64,000 bases of DNA from an uncultured Acidobacteriota bacterium (GTDB lineage: Bacteria; Acidobacteriota; Thermoanaerobaculia; Gp7-AA8), in NCBI GenBank assembly GCA_963822445.1, contig CAWGHO010000003.1, positions 672,001 through 736,000 of the forward strand. The letters are read 5' to 3'. A program made the position numbers and the translations under genes. The first letter of the stretch is position 1. Every line of letters starts with the position of its first letter. Shown piece after piece: positions 1 through 8,518 of the stretch. The notes beneath the pieces were generated by a model that saw only the letters and a list, made by a program, of their open reading frames with translations, ran no database searches and was not told the origin of the DNA.

Positions 1-399
1 AAGAACCGCACCTTCCTCCCGCACGTCCTGCCCATCCAGACCGGAACGGCGGTGCAGTTTCCGAACAGCGACGACATCCGCCATCAGGTCTATTCGTTCT
101 CGACCGCGAAGACCTTCCAGCTGCCGCTCTACAGCGGCACGCCGTCGAAGCCGATCGTGTTCGACAAGGCCGGCGTGGCCTCGCTGGGCTGCAACATCCA
201 CGACCGGATGAGCGCGTACATCGTCGTGGTCGACACGCCGCATTTCGCCGCGACCGGCAAGAGCGGCCGCGTCACGCTGTCCGATCTGCCGGCCGGCAAG
301 TACGTCGTGCAGATCTGGCATCCGCAGCTGCGCGCGGACGCCGCGCCGATCACGCTCACGGCCAGCCAACAGGCACAACTCGTGTTCGCCTTGCGTTAG
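1..399 (+). CDS. Cupredoxin-like / methylamine-utilization-type exported protein, 5' truncated by the window edge
   Basis: Frame is open from base 1 (KNRTFLPHVLPIQTGTAVQFPNSDDIRHQVYSFS); H...GCNIHDRM type-1 copper ligand pattern. Confidence 0.8.
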   Translation, partial: KNRTFLPHVLPIQTGTAVQFPNSDDIRHQVYSFSTAKTFQLPLYSGTPSKPIVFDKAGVASLGCNIHDRMSAYIVVVDTPHFAATGKSGRVTLSDLPAGKYVVQIWHPQLRADAAPITLTASQQAQLVFALR

Positions 400-2749: not shown

Positions 2750-3760
2750 CTACCGCAGCCTTCCGCCCACACTCACGATCACCGTCGGCCCCTGCGTGAA
2801 CGCATCGCCTTCGGTCAGCGTGCGCTGCGAAATCGGATGACGAACATCCGCGCTAAGTGAGAACGCCTCGAGGTTGAGCGTCACACCCGCGGCAACACTC
2901 GTCGCAACGAGCCCCGTATTCTCATCGCGCAGGTCATCCCAGTACCCATACCCCTGGGCAAAGGCCGTCCCCTCCGCGCGGATCCGCACGCGATCGGACA
3001 CGCGCTGCGACACGTGCACGCTCAGCGCGCCGTCGGGTGGCGCACGAAAGCCGCGGCGATTTTCGTAAATCGGCAGGCGCGCGTTCATCGATGCACCGGC
3101 GGTGAGGCGATCGGTGATCGGCGTCGAGTAGCTTGCCTCGAAGAGCGGATCAATGGTGCCGGTGCCGAACTGGATGTGCAGATGCTCGCGGCCTTGTTCG
3201 CCGAGGAGGTAGGGGTTTTCGACGGTGGCGCCGGTGGGGAGCGTGGCGCCGAGCGAGACATTCAGCCTCGTCCAGCGCCGGCGGGCGAGGAACATCAGAT
3301 CGCTGATGCCGCGCAGCGTCGCCGTGCGGTGATGCAGATCGATGTTCCGTTGCATCGCGGCCTGGTCTTCGGCAGATGCCGCATCGACGACGCCCAGTCC
3401 GGAGCGTTGTTCCTTCTGCTCCCACGGAACGCGCGCGATCAGGTCCCACTCCGGCGTCAGCGTGTATTGCAGGCCGAGCTCGACGCGCAGGTAATCCAGC
3501 GAGGTCTCGTGGCGATACAGCGGCACCGGTACCGGCGCGCCGGAAGACGTGTTCCCGGTTCGCGAGAAATGCCCTCCCTTGAAATCACTTCCGTAAAGCG
3601 TGGTCAGGGAGAACCGGATTGCGCCTGGAGCCAACCCGGGCTCCAACCCGCGATCGCCGCCGCGCGGGATCGCAGGATTGCTTCAGGCCGGTCACGTCTG
3701 GCCGGTCGCGGCGGGCGTGATGACGAAGATCGCCAGCGCCGCCAGCAACACCCGGATCAC
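2750..3760 (-). CDS. Putative selenoprotein: outer-membrane barrel 'transporter' (MetA/SphA-like) with N-terminal UxxU motif, 336 aa with readthrough
   Basis: GTG at 3760 overlaps the upstream stop (GTGA); reads MIRVLLAALAIFVITPAATGQT-TGA-PA-TGA-SNPAIPRGGDRG-LEPGL, in frame with ORF 2750..3646; amphipathic beta strands and QFGTGTIDP motif; SECIS-like hairpin follows. Confidence 0.8.
3644..3680 (-). promoter_or_regulatory. Candidate bacterial SECIS element
   Basis: Minus strand CAAUCC(U)GCGAUC-CCGC-GCG-GCGG-(C)-GAUCGCGGGUUG pairs by eye into a long bulged hairpin; apical loop begins with G, 19 nt after the second UGA and 28 nt after the first. Confidence 0.65.
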
Positions 3761-4410
3761 CGAGTGCGCCTCGCGATGAGCGCTTTGATCTTGTCGATGT
3801 CGTTGCCGACGACCTCGCCGATGAACTTTCCATCCGGGCCGTACACGCGAACGTAGGGAAGGGCGGCGAGCTTGAATTCCTTCGTGGCCTGTTTCGCCGC
3901 CGCCGATTCCCAGTTCTGCAGATCGATCGTCCGCAAGGCGACGTTGGCGTTGTCCTTTACCAGATGCTCGATCTTCGGCGTGAGCACGTGGCAGGGACCG
4001 CACCATTCCGCCCAGAAATCGACGATCGTGAACTTGCCGCGGACGAGATGGTCGCGCAGGACGAAGGCCTCGCCATTCGAGGCGACCTTGATGTCCAGCG
4101 CGGCGCGCTCCTGCGGCGTGAGGCGGGCGCGGACGACGTCACCCGCGAAGGTAGCTTCGAATCCGAATTTGCCGAGCGCGGCGCGGATCTCCGCGGGAGC
4201 GACGAGTCGCGTCGATTCGACGCGGCCGCGTTTCATCGCGTAGGTCACGTCGACGTTCGTCACGCCGGGAAGCTTCTTGAGTGCGTCGGATGCCGTAGCC
4301 GAGCATCCATCGCAGGAGAGTCCGGCCACGTCGAACTCCGAGACGAACGTCTGCGCGCCGGCGGTCAGAGCCGTCAGCGTGAGAAAGGCGATCGTTGCCA
4401 GGGTTCGCAT
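3757..4410 (-). CDS. Exported heavy-metal-associated (HMA/MerP-like) domain fused to thioredoxin
   Basis: ATG 4410, signal peptide MRTLATIAFLTLTALTAGA, HMA motif GLSCDGC, thioredoxin motif DFWAEWCGPC. Confidence 0.9.
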   Translation of the reverse strand: MRTLATIAFLTLTALTAGAQTFVSEFDVAGLSCDGCSATASDALKKLPGVTNVDVTYAMKRGRVESTRLVAPAEIRAALGKFGFEATFAGDVVRARLTPQERAALDIKVASNGEAFVLRDHLVRGKFTIVDFWAEWCGPCHVLTPKIEHLVKDNANVALRTIDLQNWESAAAKQATKEFKLAALPYVRVYGPDGKFIGEVVGNDIDKIKALIARRTR

Positions 4411-4455: not shown

Positions 4456-6819
4456 ATGGCGTTGCTCCTCTACCTCGCGACCGCGCTGGTGATCCTCTGG
4501 CTCGCGCACCGGTTCATCAGGCCGATCTCTCGCGCGGCCGCGATGGTGCTGCTCGCACTGCCGTTCGCGATCGCGGGCTACGCGCTCATCACCAGCGGCG
4601 TGTACGGCCCCGTCGATCATCCATATCAATACCCGCCGCTCTCCGCGCTCGCGGAGGAGCACGGCATCGGACCGGCCCGAAACGCCTCGGCCATCGACAT
4701 CTGGAGCGAGTTCTATCCCTGGCGGCTGGCGGTGAAGGAGTCGCTGGCGCGCGGGGAGTGGCCGCTGTGGAACGCGTACAACCTGGCCGGTCATCCGCTC
4801 GCGGCCGAAGCGCAGTCGGCGCCGTTCTCGCCGTTCACGCTGCTCGCCTGTCTGCTGCCGGCGATGCTGAGCTGGACCTACTCGCTGGCCATCGTCCTCT
4901 TCATCGCCGCCCTCGGCGCATTCCTCTTCGCGCGCGAGCTCGGATGCGGCGAAGGGGCCTCGCTCGTCGCCGCGATCGGCTGGGGCCTGGCCTCCTGCAC
5001 CGGCTCGCGACTGACGGCGATGGGTTTTTCGACCGCGTACGCCCCCATGCTCCTCGCGGCCGTCCGCCGTGTAGTGTGGGCCTCCGGCCTACCTTCTTCG
5101 GTTTCTTCCGGCGCGTTCCTGACCGTGACCCTCACCCTCACTCTCCTCGAAGGCCACCCCGAGTCCCTCTTCCTCAACGTTCTCGTCGGCTCTGCTTACG
5201 CACTCTTCGAACTAATCCGCCGCCGCGCCGCCCCCTGGCGCGCGATCGCAACAGCCGTTGCCGCAGGCGCAATCACCCTGCTCCTCTGCGCGATTGCCTT
5301 GCTGCCGCTCCTCGAAGCGATTCCCCAGTCGCACGAGTACCTGGTGAAGAGCGATGCTCTCGCCGACGTCCCGCGCGGTCTGCCGAATCGCCACGTTGCG
5401 GCGGCGCTGGCCACGAATCTCTTTCCCTATCTCCAGGTCCGTCACTGGCTGAAGCCGGACGCCGGCTACGTCGCGCCGGAAACGACGCCGGTGGGCAGCA
5501 TCATCCTCGCGCTGTCGATCTACGCGGTCTGGCGCAGACGATCACCGGAAACGTGGTTCTTCGCCGGTCTGGCCGTGTTCTGCCTGCTGACCGGAGCGCG
5601 CTGGGCGCCGATCGCGGACACGCTGCACAAGCTCCCGCTGCTGAACATCACCTTTCATGACCGTCTCGCTTTTCACGGCGCAATCTGCCTGATCGTGCTG
5701 GCCGCGCTCGGCGTCGAGCATTGCCTGCGAACGAACGACCGCCGCGCGGTGATGTTCACCATGCTGGCGACACTCGCTTTCGTCATCGCCGGCACGTTCT
5801 GGCTGCAAACCAACACCATCCTCGCCACCACCGCCGCCGACTACGGCCGCTATCGCATCCTCGGCGAAATCGTCTTTCTCGCAGCGGCGACGTTGTTGCT
5901 CGCGTCGCGATCGCGCGTGTTGCTGCCGGCGCTGCTGGCGCTGCTGGTCGGCCAGCGCGCGCTCTCCGAGATCGACACGTTCGGGAACTTTCCGCTCAAA
6001 GCCGCTTATCCGCCGGTCGTGATGCTCGAGCCGCTGAAGCAGATTCGCGAGCCGTTCCGCATCGTGGGAGCTGGCCTTGCGCTGCCACCGGCGGTGAACA
6101 CGTTCTACGGCGTGGAAGACGTGCGCGGCTACGAGGCGCTCACGCTCGATCAGTTCGTCACGACCTGGAAGCTGTGGTGCCGGCGGCATGGGATCTGGTT
6201 CAACCGCGTCGACGATCTGACTTCGCCATTCCTGTCGCTGATGAACGTGCGCTTCGCCATTCAGTCGGACGATCTCCCGGTGCCGGTGGGCTGGCGAGTC
6301 GTTGGAAAGCAGCCAGGGGCGATGCTGCTGGAGAACGCGAACGTCATCGATCGCATCTTCGTGCCGTCGCGAGTCGTGCTTTCCGGCGCGCTTCCCGAGG
6401 AGATCGTCGACCGCATGGCGCCCGTTCGCGACTTTCGCGAGATCGCCTGGATCACCTCCCGCTCCGCCCAGCCCGAACAGCCGAACGGTCCCGGCAAAAT
6501 CACCCTGCGCTCCCGCAGCCGCGGCGGCGAATACGTCTTCGATGCGGCGATGGAGAACGACGGGTACGTGGTGATCAGCGACGCCGCATGGAAAGGCTGG
6601 CGCGCTTACGTCGACGGGCGCCGCGTTTCGCTCAATCGCGCGAACGCCGCGTTTCTGTCGGTGCTGGTGCCGAAAGGGCGGCACACGGTTCGGGTGGTGT
6701 ACATGCCTGGATCGTTCGTGCGCGGCCGGGCGATCAGCATCAGTACGCTGATGCTGATCGCCGGCGTGGCCCTGATTCGCCGTTACGGCAAAGACACGTT
6801 GTTCAGAGCGAGGGGATAG
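4456..6819 (+). CDS. YfhO family membrane glycosyltransferase (GT-C), paralogue 1
   Basis: GEWPLWNAYNLAGHPL motif, many TM helices, C-terminal GWRAYVDG...V.VP.G.H.V...Y.P motif. Confidence 0.9.
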   Translation: MALLLYLATALVILWLAHRFIRPISRAAAMVLLALPFAIAGYALITSGVYGPVDHPYQYPPLSALAEEHGIGPARNASAIDIWSEFYPWRLAVKESLARGEWPLWNAYNLAGHPLAAEAQSAPFSPFTLLACLLPAMLSWTYSLAIVLFIAALGAFLFARELGCGEGASLVAAIGWGLASCTGSRLTAMGFSTAYAPMLLAAVRRVVWASGLPSSVSSGAFLTVTLTLTLLEGHPESLFLNVLVGSAYALFELIRRRAAPWRAIATAVAAGAITLLLCAIALLPLLEAIPQSHEYLVKSDALADVPRGLPNRHVAAALATNLFPYLQVRHWLKPDAGYVAPETTPVGSIILALSIYAVWRRRSPETWFFAGLAVFCLLTGARWAPIADTLHKLPLLNITFHDRLAFHGAICLIVLAALGVEHCLRTNDRRAVMFTMLATLAFVIAGTFWLQTNTILATTAADYGRYRILGEIVFLAAATLLLASRSRVLLPALLALLVGQRALSEIDTFGNFPLKAAYPPVVMLEPLKQIREPFRIVGAGLALPPAVNTFYGVEDVRGYEALTLDQFVTTWKLWCRRHGIWFNRVDDLTSPFLSLMNVRFAIQSDDLPVPVGWRVVGKQPGAMLLENANVIDRIFVPSRVVLSGALPEEIVDRMAPVRDFREIAWITSRSAQPEQPNGPGKITLRSRSRGGEYVFDAAMENDGYVVISDAAWKGWRAYVDGRRVSLNRANAAFLSVLVPKGRHTVRVVYMPGSFVRGRAISISTLMLIAGVALIRRYGKDTLFRARG

Positions 6820-7625
6820 CGCACCAGGTTCTTCGAAGTGCGCATGCTCACCCGCAGTTTCCAGTCGGGCTGGGGCTTGCCCGCCCACGTCGAAAGCTTG
6901 GTCATCCCTTCATCGTCGATGACCGACACCATCTGCACTTCGCCGGCGCCGTCGATGTAGCTGATGTCCTGGATGCGCTTGTTCGGATCCTTGATCCGGA
7001 CCATGACGTCGTTCTCGGACGCGCCCATGAACATGCCTTCGAGGAACTGCTTGAGCATGTTCGCCAGGTCTTCGCCTTCGAATCCCATCTCCGCGTACTC
7101 TTTTTTCTTCTCGTCGGAGCGTTTCTTCTTCTCAGCCTCGAGCTGCGCGGGCGTCACGAGGGAGATCTCCACGCCGTTCGCCTTGAGGGCCTTGTGAGCG
7201 AGCGGCTTCCCGGACTGCGGAAGGAACTTCGCAACTTCGGCAATGCTGTTCGGATCCTTCGCCGGCATGAACAGCTCGATCTCGCCGCGCACTTCTTTGA
7301 TGCTCATCGCTTTGCGATCGGGATTCTTGAGCGTGACCGACACCGCGGCCGGACGGTCCGGCTGTCCACCACGGTTCGTCTCGAACTGAGGCTCCTTCGC
7401 CTCGGGATCGAGAAGATCGCGGCCGGTCTCATCGACGGCCTTCGTCAGAAGGACACGCGACGCCGCGACGTCCGACGATTTGATCTTCGGCATCTCCACG
7501 GAGATGGCCAGCTGGGCGAAGAAGCCGTTGGTCCGGCGATCGTTGACCTGGCGCACGACGAGCGATTCCTGCGCGGCGACGGCCGTACTGGAGAGAACGA
7601 GAGTGAGAGCGATCAGCGTCTTCAT
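6783..7625 (-). CDS. Secreted hypothetical protein (paralogue of adjacent gene)
   Basis: Signal peptide; aligns by eye with 7622..8518; ATGA overlap. Confidence 0.85.
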   Translation of the reverse strand: MKTLIALTLVLSSTAVAAQESLVVRQVNDRRTNGFFAQLAISVEMPKIKSSDVAASRVLLTKAVDETGRDLLDPEAKEPQFETNRGGQPDRPAAVSVTLKNPDRKAMSIKEVRGEIELFMPAKDPNSIAEVAKFLPQSGKPLAHKALKANGVEISLVTPAQLEAEKKKRSDEKKKEYAEMGFEGEDLANMLKQFLEGMFMGASENDVMVRIKDPNKRIQDISYIDGAGEVQMVSVIDDEGMTKLSTWAGKPQPDWKLRVSMRTSKNLVRYPLALNNVSLP

Positions 7626-8518
7626 GGCAATTGCACCTTCAGGTCGAACGGAAAGGAGGCCCTGGCCTTGTCGGTGACCATCTGGATCTCCAGCCTGGCG
7701 TCGGCAGGGATGGGCTCGGAGAGATTGAGGGTCATCAGCGCGGACTCGCCGCGCGTGCTCGTGGAACGGCCGGAGGTGTTCATCGGCTTGCCGTCGCTGC
7801 CGAGGACCTCGATGCGGAAGATGCGGTCGAAGTCGGCTTTCTTGCCGGAGAGGACCACCGCCCCTTCCGGATAGCCGCTGTCCATCGACTCGAAGGCCTT
7901 GGCCATTTCGATGGCCAGCTCGATCTCCTTCGCATCGACGCCGCGCGCTTTTCCTTCGGCGCGGATCTTCTCGATGTCTTCCGCGGTGATCGTCCGCGCT
8001 TTCTTCGCAGCCTCGTAACCCTCACGCGAAAGCGGCGTGATCTCCAGCTTCGCCGCCTTGAGCGCCTTCGAGGAAAACGGCACGTCGAGCTTCGCGAGAG
8101 GCTTGTCTATTTTCACACTGGCGTTCGGATCCTTGCCGGGAACGTAAAGCTCGACGGTTCCTTTCAAGCGAACCGACGTGGCCTTGCGCTCCGGCTGGCC
8201 GACCGACATCTGCAACGTCCCGCTGTTGTAGTCGCGTGGCATGAAGTCGGGGATGTCCGGATTGGCTTTGAGAAGGTTCTTGCCGCTGTCGTCTTTGGCT
8301 TCCTTGACGATCACGCGCGCGGCTGTGGCTTTGTCGAGTCCGGAGCCGGTGAGCTTGACCCGCAGATCGAGGCCGCCGGCCATCTGAAATCCGCCCGTGT
8401 CGCTGGACGACACGCGGTTGTCGACGACATCGTCGACTTCCACGCCTACGCCGGATTGTCCGTGCGCGGCCGTGGTGAGAAGGAGAAGGAGCCCGAGAAC
8501 GAAGGTTGCCCGCATCAA
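7622..8518 (-). CDS. Secreted hypothetical protein
   Basis: Signal peptide ending AHG; GAGGTG RBS; long open frame with typical codon usage. Confidence 0.85.
   Translation of the reverse strand: MMRATFVLGLLLLLTTAAHGQSGVGVEVDDVVDNRVSSSDTGGFQMAGGLDLRVKLTGSGLDKATAARVIVKEAKDDSGKNLLKANPDIPDFMPRDYNSGTLQMSVGQPERKATSVRLKGTVELYVPGKDPNASVKIDKPLAKLDVPFSSKALKAAKLEITPLSREGYEAAKKARTITAEDIEKIRAEGKARGVDAKEIELAIEMAKAFESMDSGYPEGAVVLSGKKADFDRIFRIEVLGSDGKPMNTSGRSTSTRGESALMTLNLSEPIPADARLEIQMVTDKARASFPFDLKVQLP

Follow-up and report, generated by a model that had tools for sequence, protein, structure and literature searches.

A putative outer-membrane barrel with a Sec-x-x-Sec N-terminus and an exported HMA-thioredoxin partner in an uncultured Acidobacteriota bacterium

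In the 64,000-nt stretch of contig CAWGHO010000003.1 from an uncultured Acidobacteriota bacterium that was analysed here as a whole (the window; positions are counted from its first letter), an operon of two genes only lies on the minus strand: one for an exported protein with an HMA and a thioredoxin (Trx) domain (4410..3757), and one (3760..2750) for a predicted outer-membrane barrel whose frame contains two TGA codons that very probably encode selenocysteine (Sec, U). The divergent neighbour, a gene for a YfhO-like membrane protein, starts at 4456, and the convergent neighbour, a GGDEF-EAL gene, ends at 2689. The features of the operon are the following:

3757..4410, minus strand: exported HMA-thioredoxin gene of 217 residues with stop TGA 3759-3757, recognised by its Pfam domains and as a conserved two-domain neighbour
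4314-4303 and 4005-3991, minus strand: the HMA CxxC and the Trx WCGPC of this gene
2750..3760, minus strand: putative full selenoprotein gene with signal peptide, Q-T-U-P-A-U N-terminus and 12-strand outer-membrane barrel, from the frame with TGA read as U and from homologues
3701..3760, minus strand: predicted signal peptide, residues 1-20, with a GTG start that overlaps the upstream stop; similar signal peptides precede the motif in the 77 loci where the motif was found
3692..3694, minus strand: first in-frame TGA, predicted Sec 23 (mature residue 3), aligned with Cys (CPAC, CPAU) and with TGA (32 UxxU sites)
3683..3685, minus strand: second in-frame TGA, predicted Sec 26 (mature residue 6), aligned with Cys (19+1 CxxC) and with TGA (59 UxxU/CxxU sites)
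3647..3676, minus strand: hairpin 1, 13 base pairs (bp) with one bulge and the apical loop GCG, from the fold of the window and covariation of helix 1 in relatives
3625..3646, minus strand: hairpin 2, 8 bp with the loop CGGGUU (G-G/U motif), from the window fold and RNAalifold
2753..3619, minus strand: barrel domain, residues 48-336, 12 strands, from AlphaFold2 models, Foldseek, VIA and alignments

Ordinary calling of open reading frames (ORFs; table 11) finds only 2750..3646 at the barrel locus, a product of 298 residues that starts at TTG 3646 and has no signal peptide. An earlier sequence-only reading of this DNA had proposed that the frame extends further upstream, to GTG 3760, and translation of the minus strand bears this out: GTG 3760-3758 opens V/M-IRVLLAALAIFVITPAATG-QT, followed by TGA (3694-3692), CCG, GCC, TGA (3685-3683) and SNPAIPRGGDRGLEPG, and the frame is otherwise free of stops down to TAG 2752-2750, giving 336 residues with TGA read as U and including the barrel ORF. 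The GTG does overlap the TGA stop 3759-3757 of the HMA-thioredoxin gene, as had also been read (GTGA, where the upstream gene ends ...CGG TGA). By the -3/-1 rule the signal peptide would be cleaved after A-T-G, and the two TGAs, at the spacing of a CxxC motif, then fall at the predicted mature N-terminus as had been claimed. Both TGAs are spanned by contigs that four metagenome runs yielded from close relatives, with no difference in 3635-3747 among the matches listed; soil-type metagenome runs contain only small shares of the stretch (at most 0.09).

One line of evidence that both TGAs are sense codons comes from the homologues. A protein search gave 115 relatives, mostly of 297-306 residues, and most of these cover only 86-89% of the read-through protein, which means that their truncation point is that of the window ORF; database entries mostly start 35-40 residues late and lack the signal peptide, so that the expected truncation by gene callers is seen in most of them. 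Ten longer homologues from Bacteroidota-type sources have a signal peptide and then Q-x-C-P-A-C-S-N-P-A-L-Q, which falls residue for residue on the Q-T-U-P-A-U-S-N-P-A-I-P of the window protein. When 401 genomes of the window's phylum were searched in six frames, nine gave matches, and all seven places that cover the N-terminus have exactly two in-frame TGAs; the translated context is a signal peptide followed by U-P-A-U-S-N-P in five of them, the two more distant ones reading H-A-U-P-A-U-A-N-P (L026) and G-U-A-G-U-T-N-P (L028).

Scanning one genome per species gave 284 relatives, the best 80 loci of which were retained for site counts. At the mature N-terminus the counts are UxxU 32, CxxU 27 and CxxC 19, and the motif was not found in three loci, of which L087 turned out to be CPAC (hence CxxC 19+1), L068 has ambiguous bases at the second site and L074 begins at a contig end. 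Cys or TGA is thus present at both positions in the barrel homologues, which was the check that the sequence-only reading had put first. The UPAU and UAAU forms come from metagenome-assembled genomes (MAGs) labelled Thermoanaerobaculia, Acidobacteriota, Planctomycetota and Gemmatimonadetes, the UGAU and CPAU forms from Poribacteria, and the CPAC forms from Bacteroidota families. Across 44 full mature sequences C/U3, A5, C/U6, N8 and P9 are invariant, and all of these lie upstream of the gene-caller start. Selenoprotein families are classically marked by such an exchange of Sec and Cys at fixed sites, and here the in-frame UGAs have Cys-bearing homologues at their positions and a conserved frame on both sides, with the signal peptide upstream and N8, P9 and the barrel downstream. 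The family is large, with 686 clusters at 50% identity at E up to 0.001 and 128 clusters at E up to 1e-30.

Some members of the family deserve separate mention. In one genome of the phylum a UPAU barrel gene lies in three pieces (L027, L031 and L032; G250:C12:780779-786343; query residues 4-134, 141-243 and 250-331) that are ~1.2 kb and ~3.4 kb apart, as if interrupted by insertions. One Poribacteria genome holds paralogues 2.5 kb apart (L050:2540 and L050:5111) with C-A-A-U and U-G-A-U starts, so that a single genome has both Cys and Sec at the first position. Two database proteins, P0194 and P0198, show W at the family's Sec positions (C-S-L-W-S-N-P and W-G-A-W-S-N-P); they were presumably called under a TGA=W code, which would be another route by which this barrel family is mis-annotated. 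In a distant subfamily (P0186, P0192, P0201, P0204, P0110 and L028) a second Cys pair, C-P-[DE]-I-x-P-I-x-C, is conserved right ahead of the first strands, often together with a C-terminal Trx and sometimes with a Cupredoxin_1 fusion. The idea of a lipoprotein with Cys/Sec at +1 was dismissed for the main family, where G-Q-x before the first Cys/Sec makes no lipobox; some distant Cys forms do have L-A-C or F-A-C.

The window's genome, which is 94.7% complete, contains all four components of the Sec machinery that the sequence-only reading had asked about: selA (488.6 bits, cut-off 267.9), selB (368.6 bits, cut-off 242), selD (371 bits) and a tRNA-Sec (71.1 bits; called as tRNA-SeC with anticodon TCA by ARAGORN). 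The selD gene (L010, G000:C2:1710833-1711771) has one in-frame TGA of its own, so that SelD itself would be a selenoprotein, which is independent evidence of active Sec decoding in this organism. Among other hosts of TGA forms, selA is over the cut-off in four of five and selB in five of five, the five being G230, three Poribacteria genomes and one Planctomycetota genome; selA was found in none of five Bacteroidota hosts of Cys forms (genome completeness not given). TGA also terminates the HMA-thioredoxin gene at its conserved C-terminus, so that this codon is not reassigned genome-wide. Taken with the Sec/Cys exchange, we consider it very probable that both UGAs are Sec codons in a real secreted barrel.

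Two RNA hairpins follow the second UGA. Hairpin 1 begins after a 6-nt spacer, and its loop starts 19 nt past the second TGA and 28 nt past the first; the loop of hairpin 2, the RNA element best conserved in TGA forms, starts 44 nt past the second TGA. A bulged hairpin had been placed 2 nt after the second TGA, and weak outer pairs of the minimum free energy (MFE) fold do begin there, but the strong bulged hairpin begins only after 6 nt. For the 66 nt after the motif, mean z-scores against dinucleotide shuffles are -1.97 for UxxU forms (n=33) and -3.12 for CxxU forms (n=25), compared with -0.49 for CxxC forms (n=19, none below -2). Alignment of 34 Sec forms with MAFFT followed by RNAalifold recovers only hairpin 2, with 7 pairs, 6 of which show compensatory changes. 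The length of hairpin 1 varies by lineage, and both helices were examined on an ungapped subset of 27 of the 58 unique Sec-form sequences: here 85.6% of the cells are paired versus 30-50% in slid controls, double changes occur in 9 of 17 pairs, and the covariation score is reached by 0 of 500 shuffles. A hairpin with a G[GU] loop is found 38-48 nt past the second codon in 50 of 58 Sec forms vs 1 of 19 Cys forms, and at 33-34 nt in four further Sec forms. The RNA structure is thus one that covaries in UGA forms and is lost in Cys forms.

The published model of the bacterial selenocysteine insertion sequence (bSECIS), as given in PMC13188914, has a loop of 3-9 nt with a G among its first two nucleotides, a stem of at least 4 bp, a distance of 16-37 nt from the UGA and an MFE of at most -7.5; hairpin 1 of the window fits this model for both UGAs. 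From the pattern of conservation we think that SelB may bind hairpin 2, with hairpin 1 acting as a spacer or helper. In some Cys forms, the N-P-A codons appear by eye to pair with the E-A-G codons, with z-scores that are not significant (mean -0.49, 0/19 below -2).

The mature part of the protein is confidently modelled as a barrel. AlphaFold2 (AF2) gives a predicted local distance difference test score (pLDDT) of 88.6 with the signal peptide and 90.8 for the mature chain, with 12 strands from residue 48 to the C-terminus and 22 residues between the second Sec and strand 1. The best solved match is 4rl8, the COG4313 channel Pput2725 (Foldseek E 5.7e-11; VIA Z 23.4, root-mean-square deviation 2.5 over 246 residues), followed by FapF and autotransporter barrels and then by FadL/TodX. 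The window protein (P0001) itself has no match in Pfam or NCBIfam; PF13557 is matched by 4 of 57 relatives (E up to 0.01), and the nearest ESM Atlas clusters carry PF13557. On the predicted structure, the family is a divergent branch of the COG4313/PF13557 superfamily.

In a 12-strand barrel both termini are periplasmic, which would place the Sec pair at the periplasmic mouth or inside the lumen and not at the cell surface. The idea of a selenol- or diselenide-tipped channel thus survives in the sense that a predicted Sec pair sits at the N-terminus of the barrel, but the tip would be periplasmic or lumenal rather than exposed on the cell. In the VIA alignments, model residues 13..315 pair with chain 1..268 of 4rl8, and model residues 1..315 with pre-cleavage EspP, whose linker crosses the barrel lumen; these are end points only, and residues 1-20 have low pLDDT, so that they give no more than a hint. 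Six histidines, H64, H84, H143, H144, H193 and H195, are invariant in alignment A1, among them those of the DLHHR and EHLH motifs that had been picked out in the sequence; in the wider alignments A3 and A5 four histidines stay invariant, and H64 and H84 nearly so. The strand topology of the model assigns all six to the outer half of strands 1-2 and to loops 2-3, which suggests that the conserved histidines would cluster in the folded barrel.

The upstream partner combines a signal peptide with an HMA domain (PF00403, 41.1 bits; C33-D-G-C36) and a thioredoxin domain (PF00085, 48 bits; WCGPC), and its two-domain architecture is kept across neighbours, with both CxxC motifs invariant. A Trx gene lies directly upstream of the barrel in 28 of the 80 loci, namely in all loci labelled Acidobacteriota or Thermoanaerobaculia, in the Gemmatimonadetes locus L047 and in 20 of the 21 Bacteroidota loci; none of the Poribacteria or Planctomycetota loci among the 80 has it. 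In the phylum search, HMA-Trx lies upstream in 6 of 7 loci. More distant members carry the Trx on the barrel itself: it is fused to the barrel C-terminus in P0116 and P0117 (with a single Cys in the N-terminal motif), L028 is a U-A-G-U barrel-Trx fusion in one frame of ~500 codons, and P0263 joins barrel, Trx and Cupredoxin_1. Because both barrel ends are periplasmic, the fused Trx and the N-terminal Sec/Cys pair lie on the same side, and this is the best argument that the Trx acts on the pair, a partner relationship that is well supported by sequence comparison. The proposal of a two-gene system with an exported HMA-thioredoxin is supported by the conservation or fusion of the partner.

In 25 Poribacteria loci (L075, L077, L079-L083, L086, L088, L091-L097, L099, L101, L103, L104, L106, L107, L110-L112) a conserved ORF of ~147 residues stands in place of HMA-Trx, ~250-650 nt upstream of the CPAU barrels. 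Its product is Cys-rich with an N-terminal hydrophobic segment, and belongs to no Pfam or NCBIfam family.

The genes around the Cys forms point to metals. Bacteroidota operons with Cys forms hold, beside the barrel and HMA-Trx, a CsoR-like repressor, a small thioredoxin, a MerT-like or MerTP protein, an HMA protein and MerA, and one of them has the order CsoR-like repressor, small Trx, MerT-like, HMA, HMA-Trx, barrel. MerA and MerTP beside Cys forms score 501 bits (cut-off 454) and 247 bits (cut-off 180). A MerA or MerT-like gene lies within 2.5 kb in 14 of the 21 Bacteroidota loci, and at least one metal gene in 17 of the 21, a P-type ATPase and a Csp1-like copper store included. In Poribacteria, the CPAU loci have downstream genes for a YHS-domain protein, a TolC-like OEP and a YtkA-like protein, in clusters that span 17, 15 and 6 loci, where the YHS match of a representative ORF (28.7 bits) is below the 30.3-bit cut-off. 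The soft-metal role put forward in the sequence-only reading can thus draw on the mer operons of the Cys forms, on the YHS and OEP neighbours and on the Cupredoxin_1 fusions, but not on the surroundings of the window copy itself, which has no metal gene beside it. It may be that the module handles thiophilic metals in general, although on gene context we see this as evenly balanced. The window's genome also holds a pyridine-nucleotide-disulfide oxidoreductase (MerA/lipoamide-dehydrogenase-like) in three consecutive pieces (L115, L116 and L118; G000:C3:1788692-1790052), the last with 3 TGAs inside; this gene may be frameshifted or otherwise unusual.

Comparison of sequences and models shows the frame, the equivalence of Sec and Cys, the Sec machinery, the hairpins, the fold class and the conservation and fusion of the partner, and the steps that we propose on this basis, from Sec insertion itself to where the tail lies, which metal is involved and which way transport runs, are predictions. 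Both UGAs would be decoded as Sec by SelA, SelB, SelC and SelD, guided by the two hairpins after the second UGA, and cleavage of the signal peptide would then give a mature protein that starts Q-T-Sec-P-A-Sec-S-N-P. Translation of the barrel would be coupled, through the GTGA overlap, to that of the periplasmic HMA-thioredoxin. The diselenol (a dithiol in the Cys forms) may sit at the periplasmic mouth or thread into the lumen toward the histidine cluster, where the N-terminal pair would bind or relay a thiophilic metal such as Hg(II), Cu(I) or Ag(I); the partner's HMA domain may exchange the metal, and the partner's thioredoxin domain may keep the Sec/Cys pair reduced. We put the whole of this reading, a secreted UxxU barrel with an HMA-Trx partner and a soft-metal role, at roughly three in four, a figure that weights the two-Sec barrel claim most.

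Several observations weigh against this reading. At the RNA level, the window's own 91-nt fold is not significant alone (z -1.77, with 8 of 200 shuffles folding as well), and significance is reached on comparing homologues. On the suggested check for a SECIS, the hairpins covary in TGA forms and hairpin 1 of the window fits the bSECIS model; across the family the fit is mixed, with 24/58 Sec forms vs 6/19 Cys forms, so that these criteria (PMC13188914) discriminate poorly. The better conserved hairpin 2 is in most forms 38-46 nt away from the second UGA, outside the 16-37 nt of that model, the hairpin 1 loop does not start with G in many relatives, and for window 3500-3800 Rfam returned a single chance-level lncRNA row (E up to 10) and no real match. 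No RNA sequencing run is listed that holds the stretch, and selA over the cut-off was not found in G230, a 95% complete TGA-form host, though selB is present. On the protein side, the N-terminal 20 residues of the model have a pLDDT of only 60-66. As for metals, the window copy has GGDEF-EAL and YfhO-like genes as its neighbours and no metal gene beside it, its genome has no MerA or MerT over the cut-off, and relatives of the Bacteroidota mer genes occur in 0 of 65 non-Cys loci at E 1e-5. In addition, a bis-selenolate would bind Hg(II) more tightly than thiolates do, which fits sequestration better than relay.

The main rival accepts the two-Sec barrel and takes the Sec/Cys pair for a redox switch or a catalytic diselenide recycled by the Trx, the barrel being a redox-gated small-molecule channel or an outer-membrane oxidoreductase. 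UxxU/CxxC is the classical redox motif, redox proteins make up most bacterial selenoproteins (PMC13188914), the thioredoxin domain is the most conserved and the fused part of the partner, COG4313 channels have a lumenal N-terminal plug (PMC4493636) and have been proposed for hydrophobic or other small molecules, and the window copy, as just noted, is not near metal genes. Against these stand the HMA or cupredoxin-like metal domain that the partner nearly always carries, the Cys forms inside mer operons, and the conserved histidines (six invariant in A1, four in all alignments), which suggest a metal site. We regard this explanation as unlikely, though it deserves to be taken seriously, and the redox and metal readings are not exclusive.

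A narrower version of the metal reading, in our view somewhat less likely again, makes the family the outer-membrane entry step for Hg(II) in mercury resistance, with a path from the barrel to a MerP-like HMA protein, MerT and MerA. It rests on the 14 of 21 Bacteroidota loci with MerA or MerT-like genes within 2.5 kb and on the operon order from CsoR-like repressor to barrel described above; those Cys forms lie in mer operons, and the window copy does not. The Sec forms, the window's included, have no adjoining mer genes, its own genome is without MerA or MerT over the cut-off, and P-type ATPase, Csp1-like copper store, YHS, OEP and cupredoxin-like neighbours of other members point to copper or silver too. 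A wider and more detailed picture is that the Sec-x-x-Sec tail lies in the lumen and forms with the conserved lumenal histidines a selenolate/imidazole site through which Hg(II) or Cu(I) crosses the outer membrane to reach the HMA-thioredoxin, served by a two-hairpin SECIS in which a G-U loop 33-48 nt downstream binds SelB and the spacer hairpin bridges the gap; we offer this only tentatively, as a picture less likely than not. If true, the selenolate/imidazole channel would be the first dedicated outer-membrane step of mer-/cop-type systems and the first two-Sec outer-membrane protein.

The remaining explanations deny that the TGAs encode Sec, and we find both very improbable. Readthrough as Trp, Cys or Gly, or reassignment of TGA in the organism, could appeal to the W shown by P0194 and P0198 and to the fact that some pipelines translate under TGA=W; TGA, however, ends the HMA-thioredoxin gene 60 nt upstream at a conserved C-terminus, homologues replace the TGAs with Cys only, selA, selB, selD and tRNA-Sec are present, and the hairpins are specific to TGA forms. 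Least probable of all is that the TGAs are real stops in a decayed or split gene, with the barrel, if made, starting at TTG 3646 without signal peptide as table 11 and most database annotations have it and with a window RNA fold that is not significant alone, since such a barrel could not reach the outer membrane, the stretch from the second TGA to TTG 3646 is conserved as protein (N8 and P9 invariant in 44 sequences), TGAs occur at the same two codons in 32 UxxU sites in several phyla with only Cys codons as replacement, and the Sec machinery tracks the TGA forms.

Set against known systems, the two-Sec barrel is closest in fold to the COG4313/PF13557 channels, of which Pput2725 of Pseudomonas putida F1 (4rl8) is likewise a 12-strand monomeric barrel and the best structural match of the structure predicted here. 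Both proteins have an N-terminal segment before the first strand, and in Pput2725 the ~14 residues that precede strand 1 fold from the periplasmic side into the lumen (PMC4493636). The window protein differs in having no PF13557 match and an identity of 11-12% to 4rl8; for COG4313, the accessible part of PMC4493636 describes neither the C/U-x-x-C/U-S-N-P motif nor the conserved histidines nor a dedicated Trx partner.

In chemistry the nearest likeness is to NF041115, the UxxU metal-binding selenoprotein in which two Sec replace a metal-site CxxC and which is linked to mercury or copper chemistry; it is HMA-like, appears as a 'putative mercuric reductase' in catalogues, and presumably has one SECIS region that serves both Sec (PMC13188914). 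NF041115 is a small soluble HMA fold and not a membrane barrel; the window's HMA protein keeps its Cys and scores 35.5 bits vs a cut-off of 95, the window barrel has no match, and the Sec pair would sit on the partner barrel instead of on the HMA protein. According to the same source, UxxU is known in NF041115 HMA-like, Prx-like and FmdB-like selenoproteins, and the MtrB/PioB barrel of the GSU2204 family (NF041027) and an FCYXU-type TonB-dependent receptor (NF049945) are predicted outer-membrane selenoproteins; these have one Sec each and belong to unrelated, larger barrel families.

The Cys-form barrels and HMA-Trx in operons with MerT-like, MerTP or MerA also recall the MerP-MerT-MerA relay, where paired Cys pass Hg(II) inward; the window copy differs in standing away from mer genes. 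The literature that we searched describes no outer-membrane component of mer operons, and to our knowledge none is known. The copper outer-membrane barrels PcoB/CopB have a flexible N-terminal metal-binding tail, and in TlpA-ScoI pairs a periplasmic thioredoxin keeps the CxxC of a metallochaperone reduced; the logic of both is analogous, and we treat them as leads only.

A search of 44 family members against NCBIfam at E 0.001 gave no match except one weak generic match to an outer-membrane protein. The barrel family is absent from the main table of the 2026 catalogue of 119 prokaryotic selenoprotein families (PMC13188914), and the accessible literature on UxxU and outer-membrane selenoproteins, mer operons and COG4313 does not describe it, although supplementary candidate lists may hold it. 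On sequence grounds it is a predicted new selenoprotein family on a known channel fold, and its candidate new features are the Sec pair at the mature N-terminus, the dedicated HMA-Trx partner and hairpins partly outside the standard SECIS window.

Elsewhere in the window, 6783-7625 and 7622-8518, both on the minus strand, are adjacent genes for secreted proteins of 280 and 298 residues that look similar in sequence and belong to no Pfam family.

The barrel gene is systematically mis-annotated in databases, and the TGA forms in MAGs of Acidobacteriota, Poribacteria, Planctomycetota and Gemmatimonadetes mean that selenoproteome counts for these phyla are too low. The paired hairpins with a conserved loop outside 16-37 nt would make a useful test case for SECIS prediction rules. 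The Cys orthologues in mer operons of Bacteroidota point to an undescribed step in mercury or copper handling that involves the outer membrane and a periplasmic thioredoxin, and they make the metal role directly testable in cultivable bacteria.

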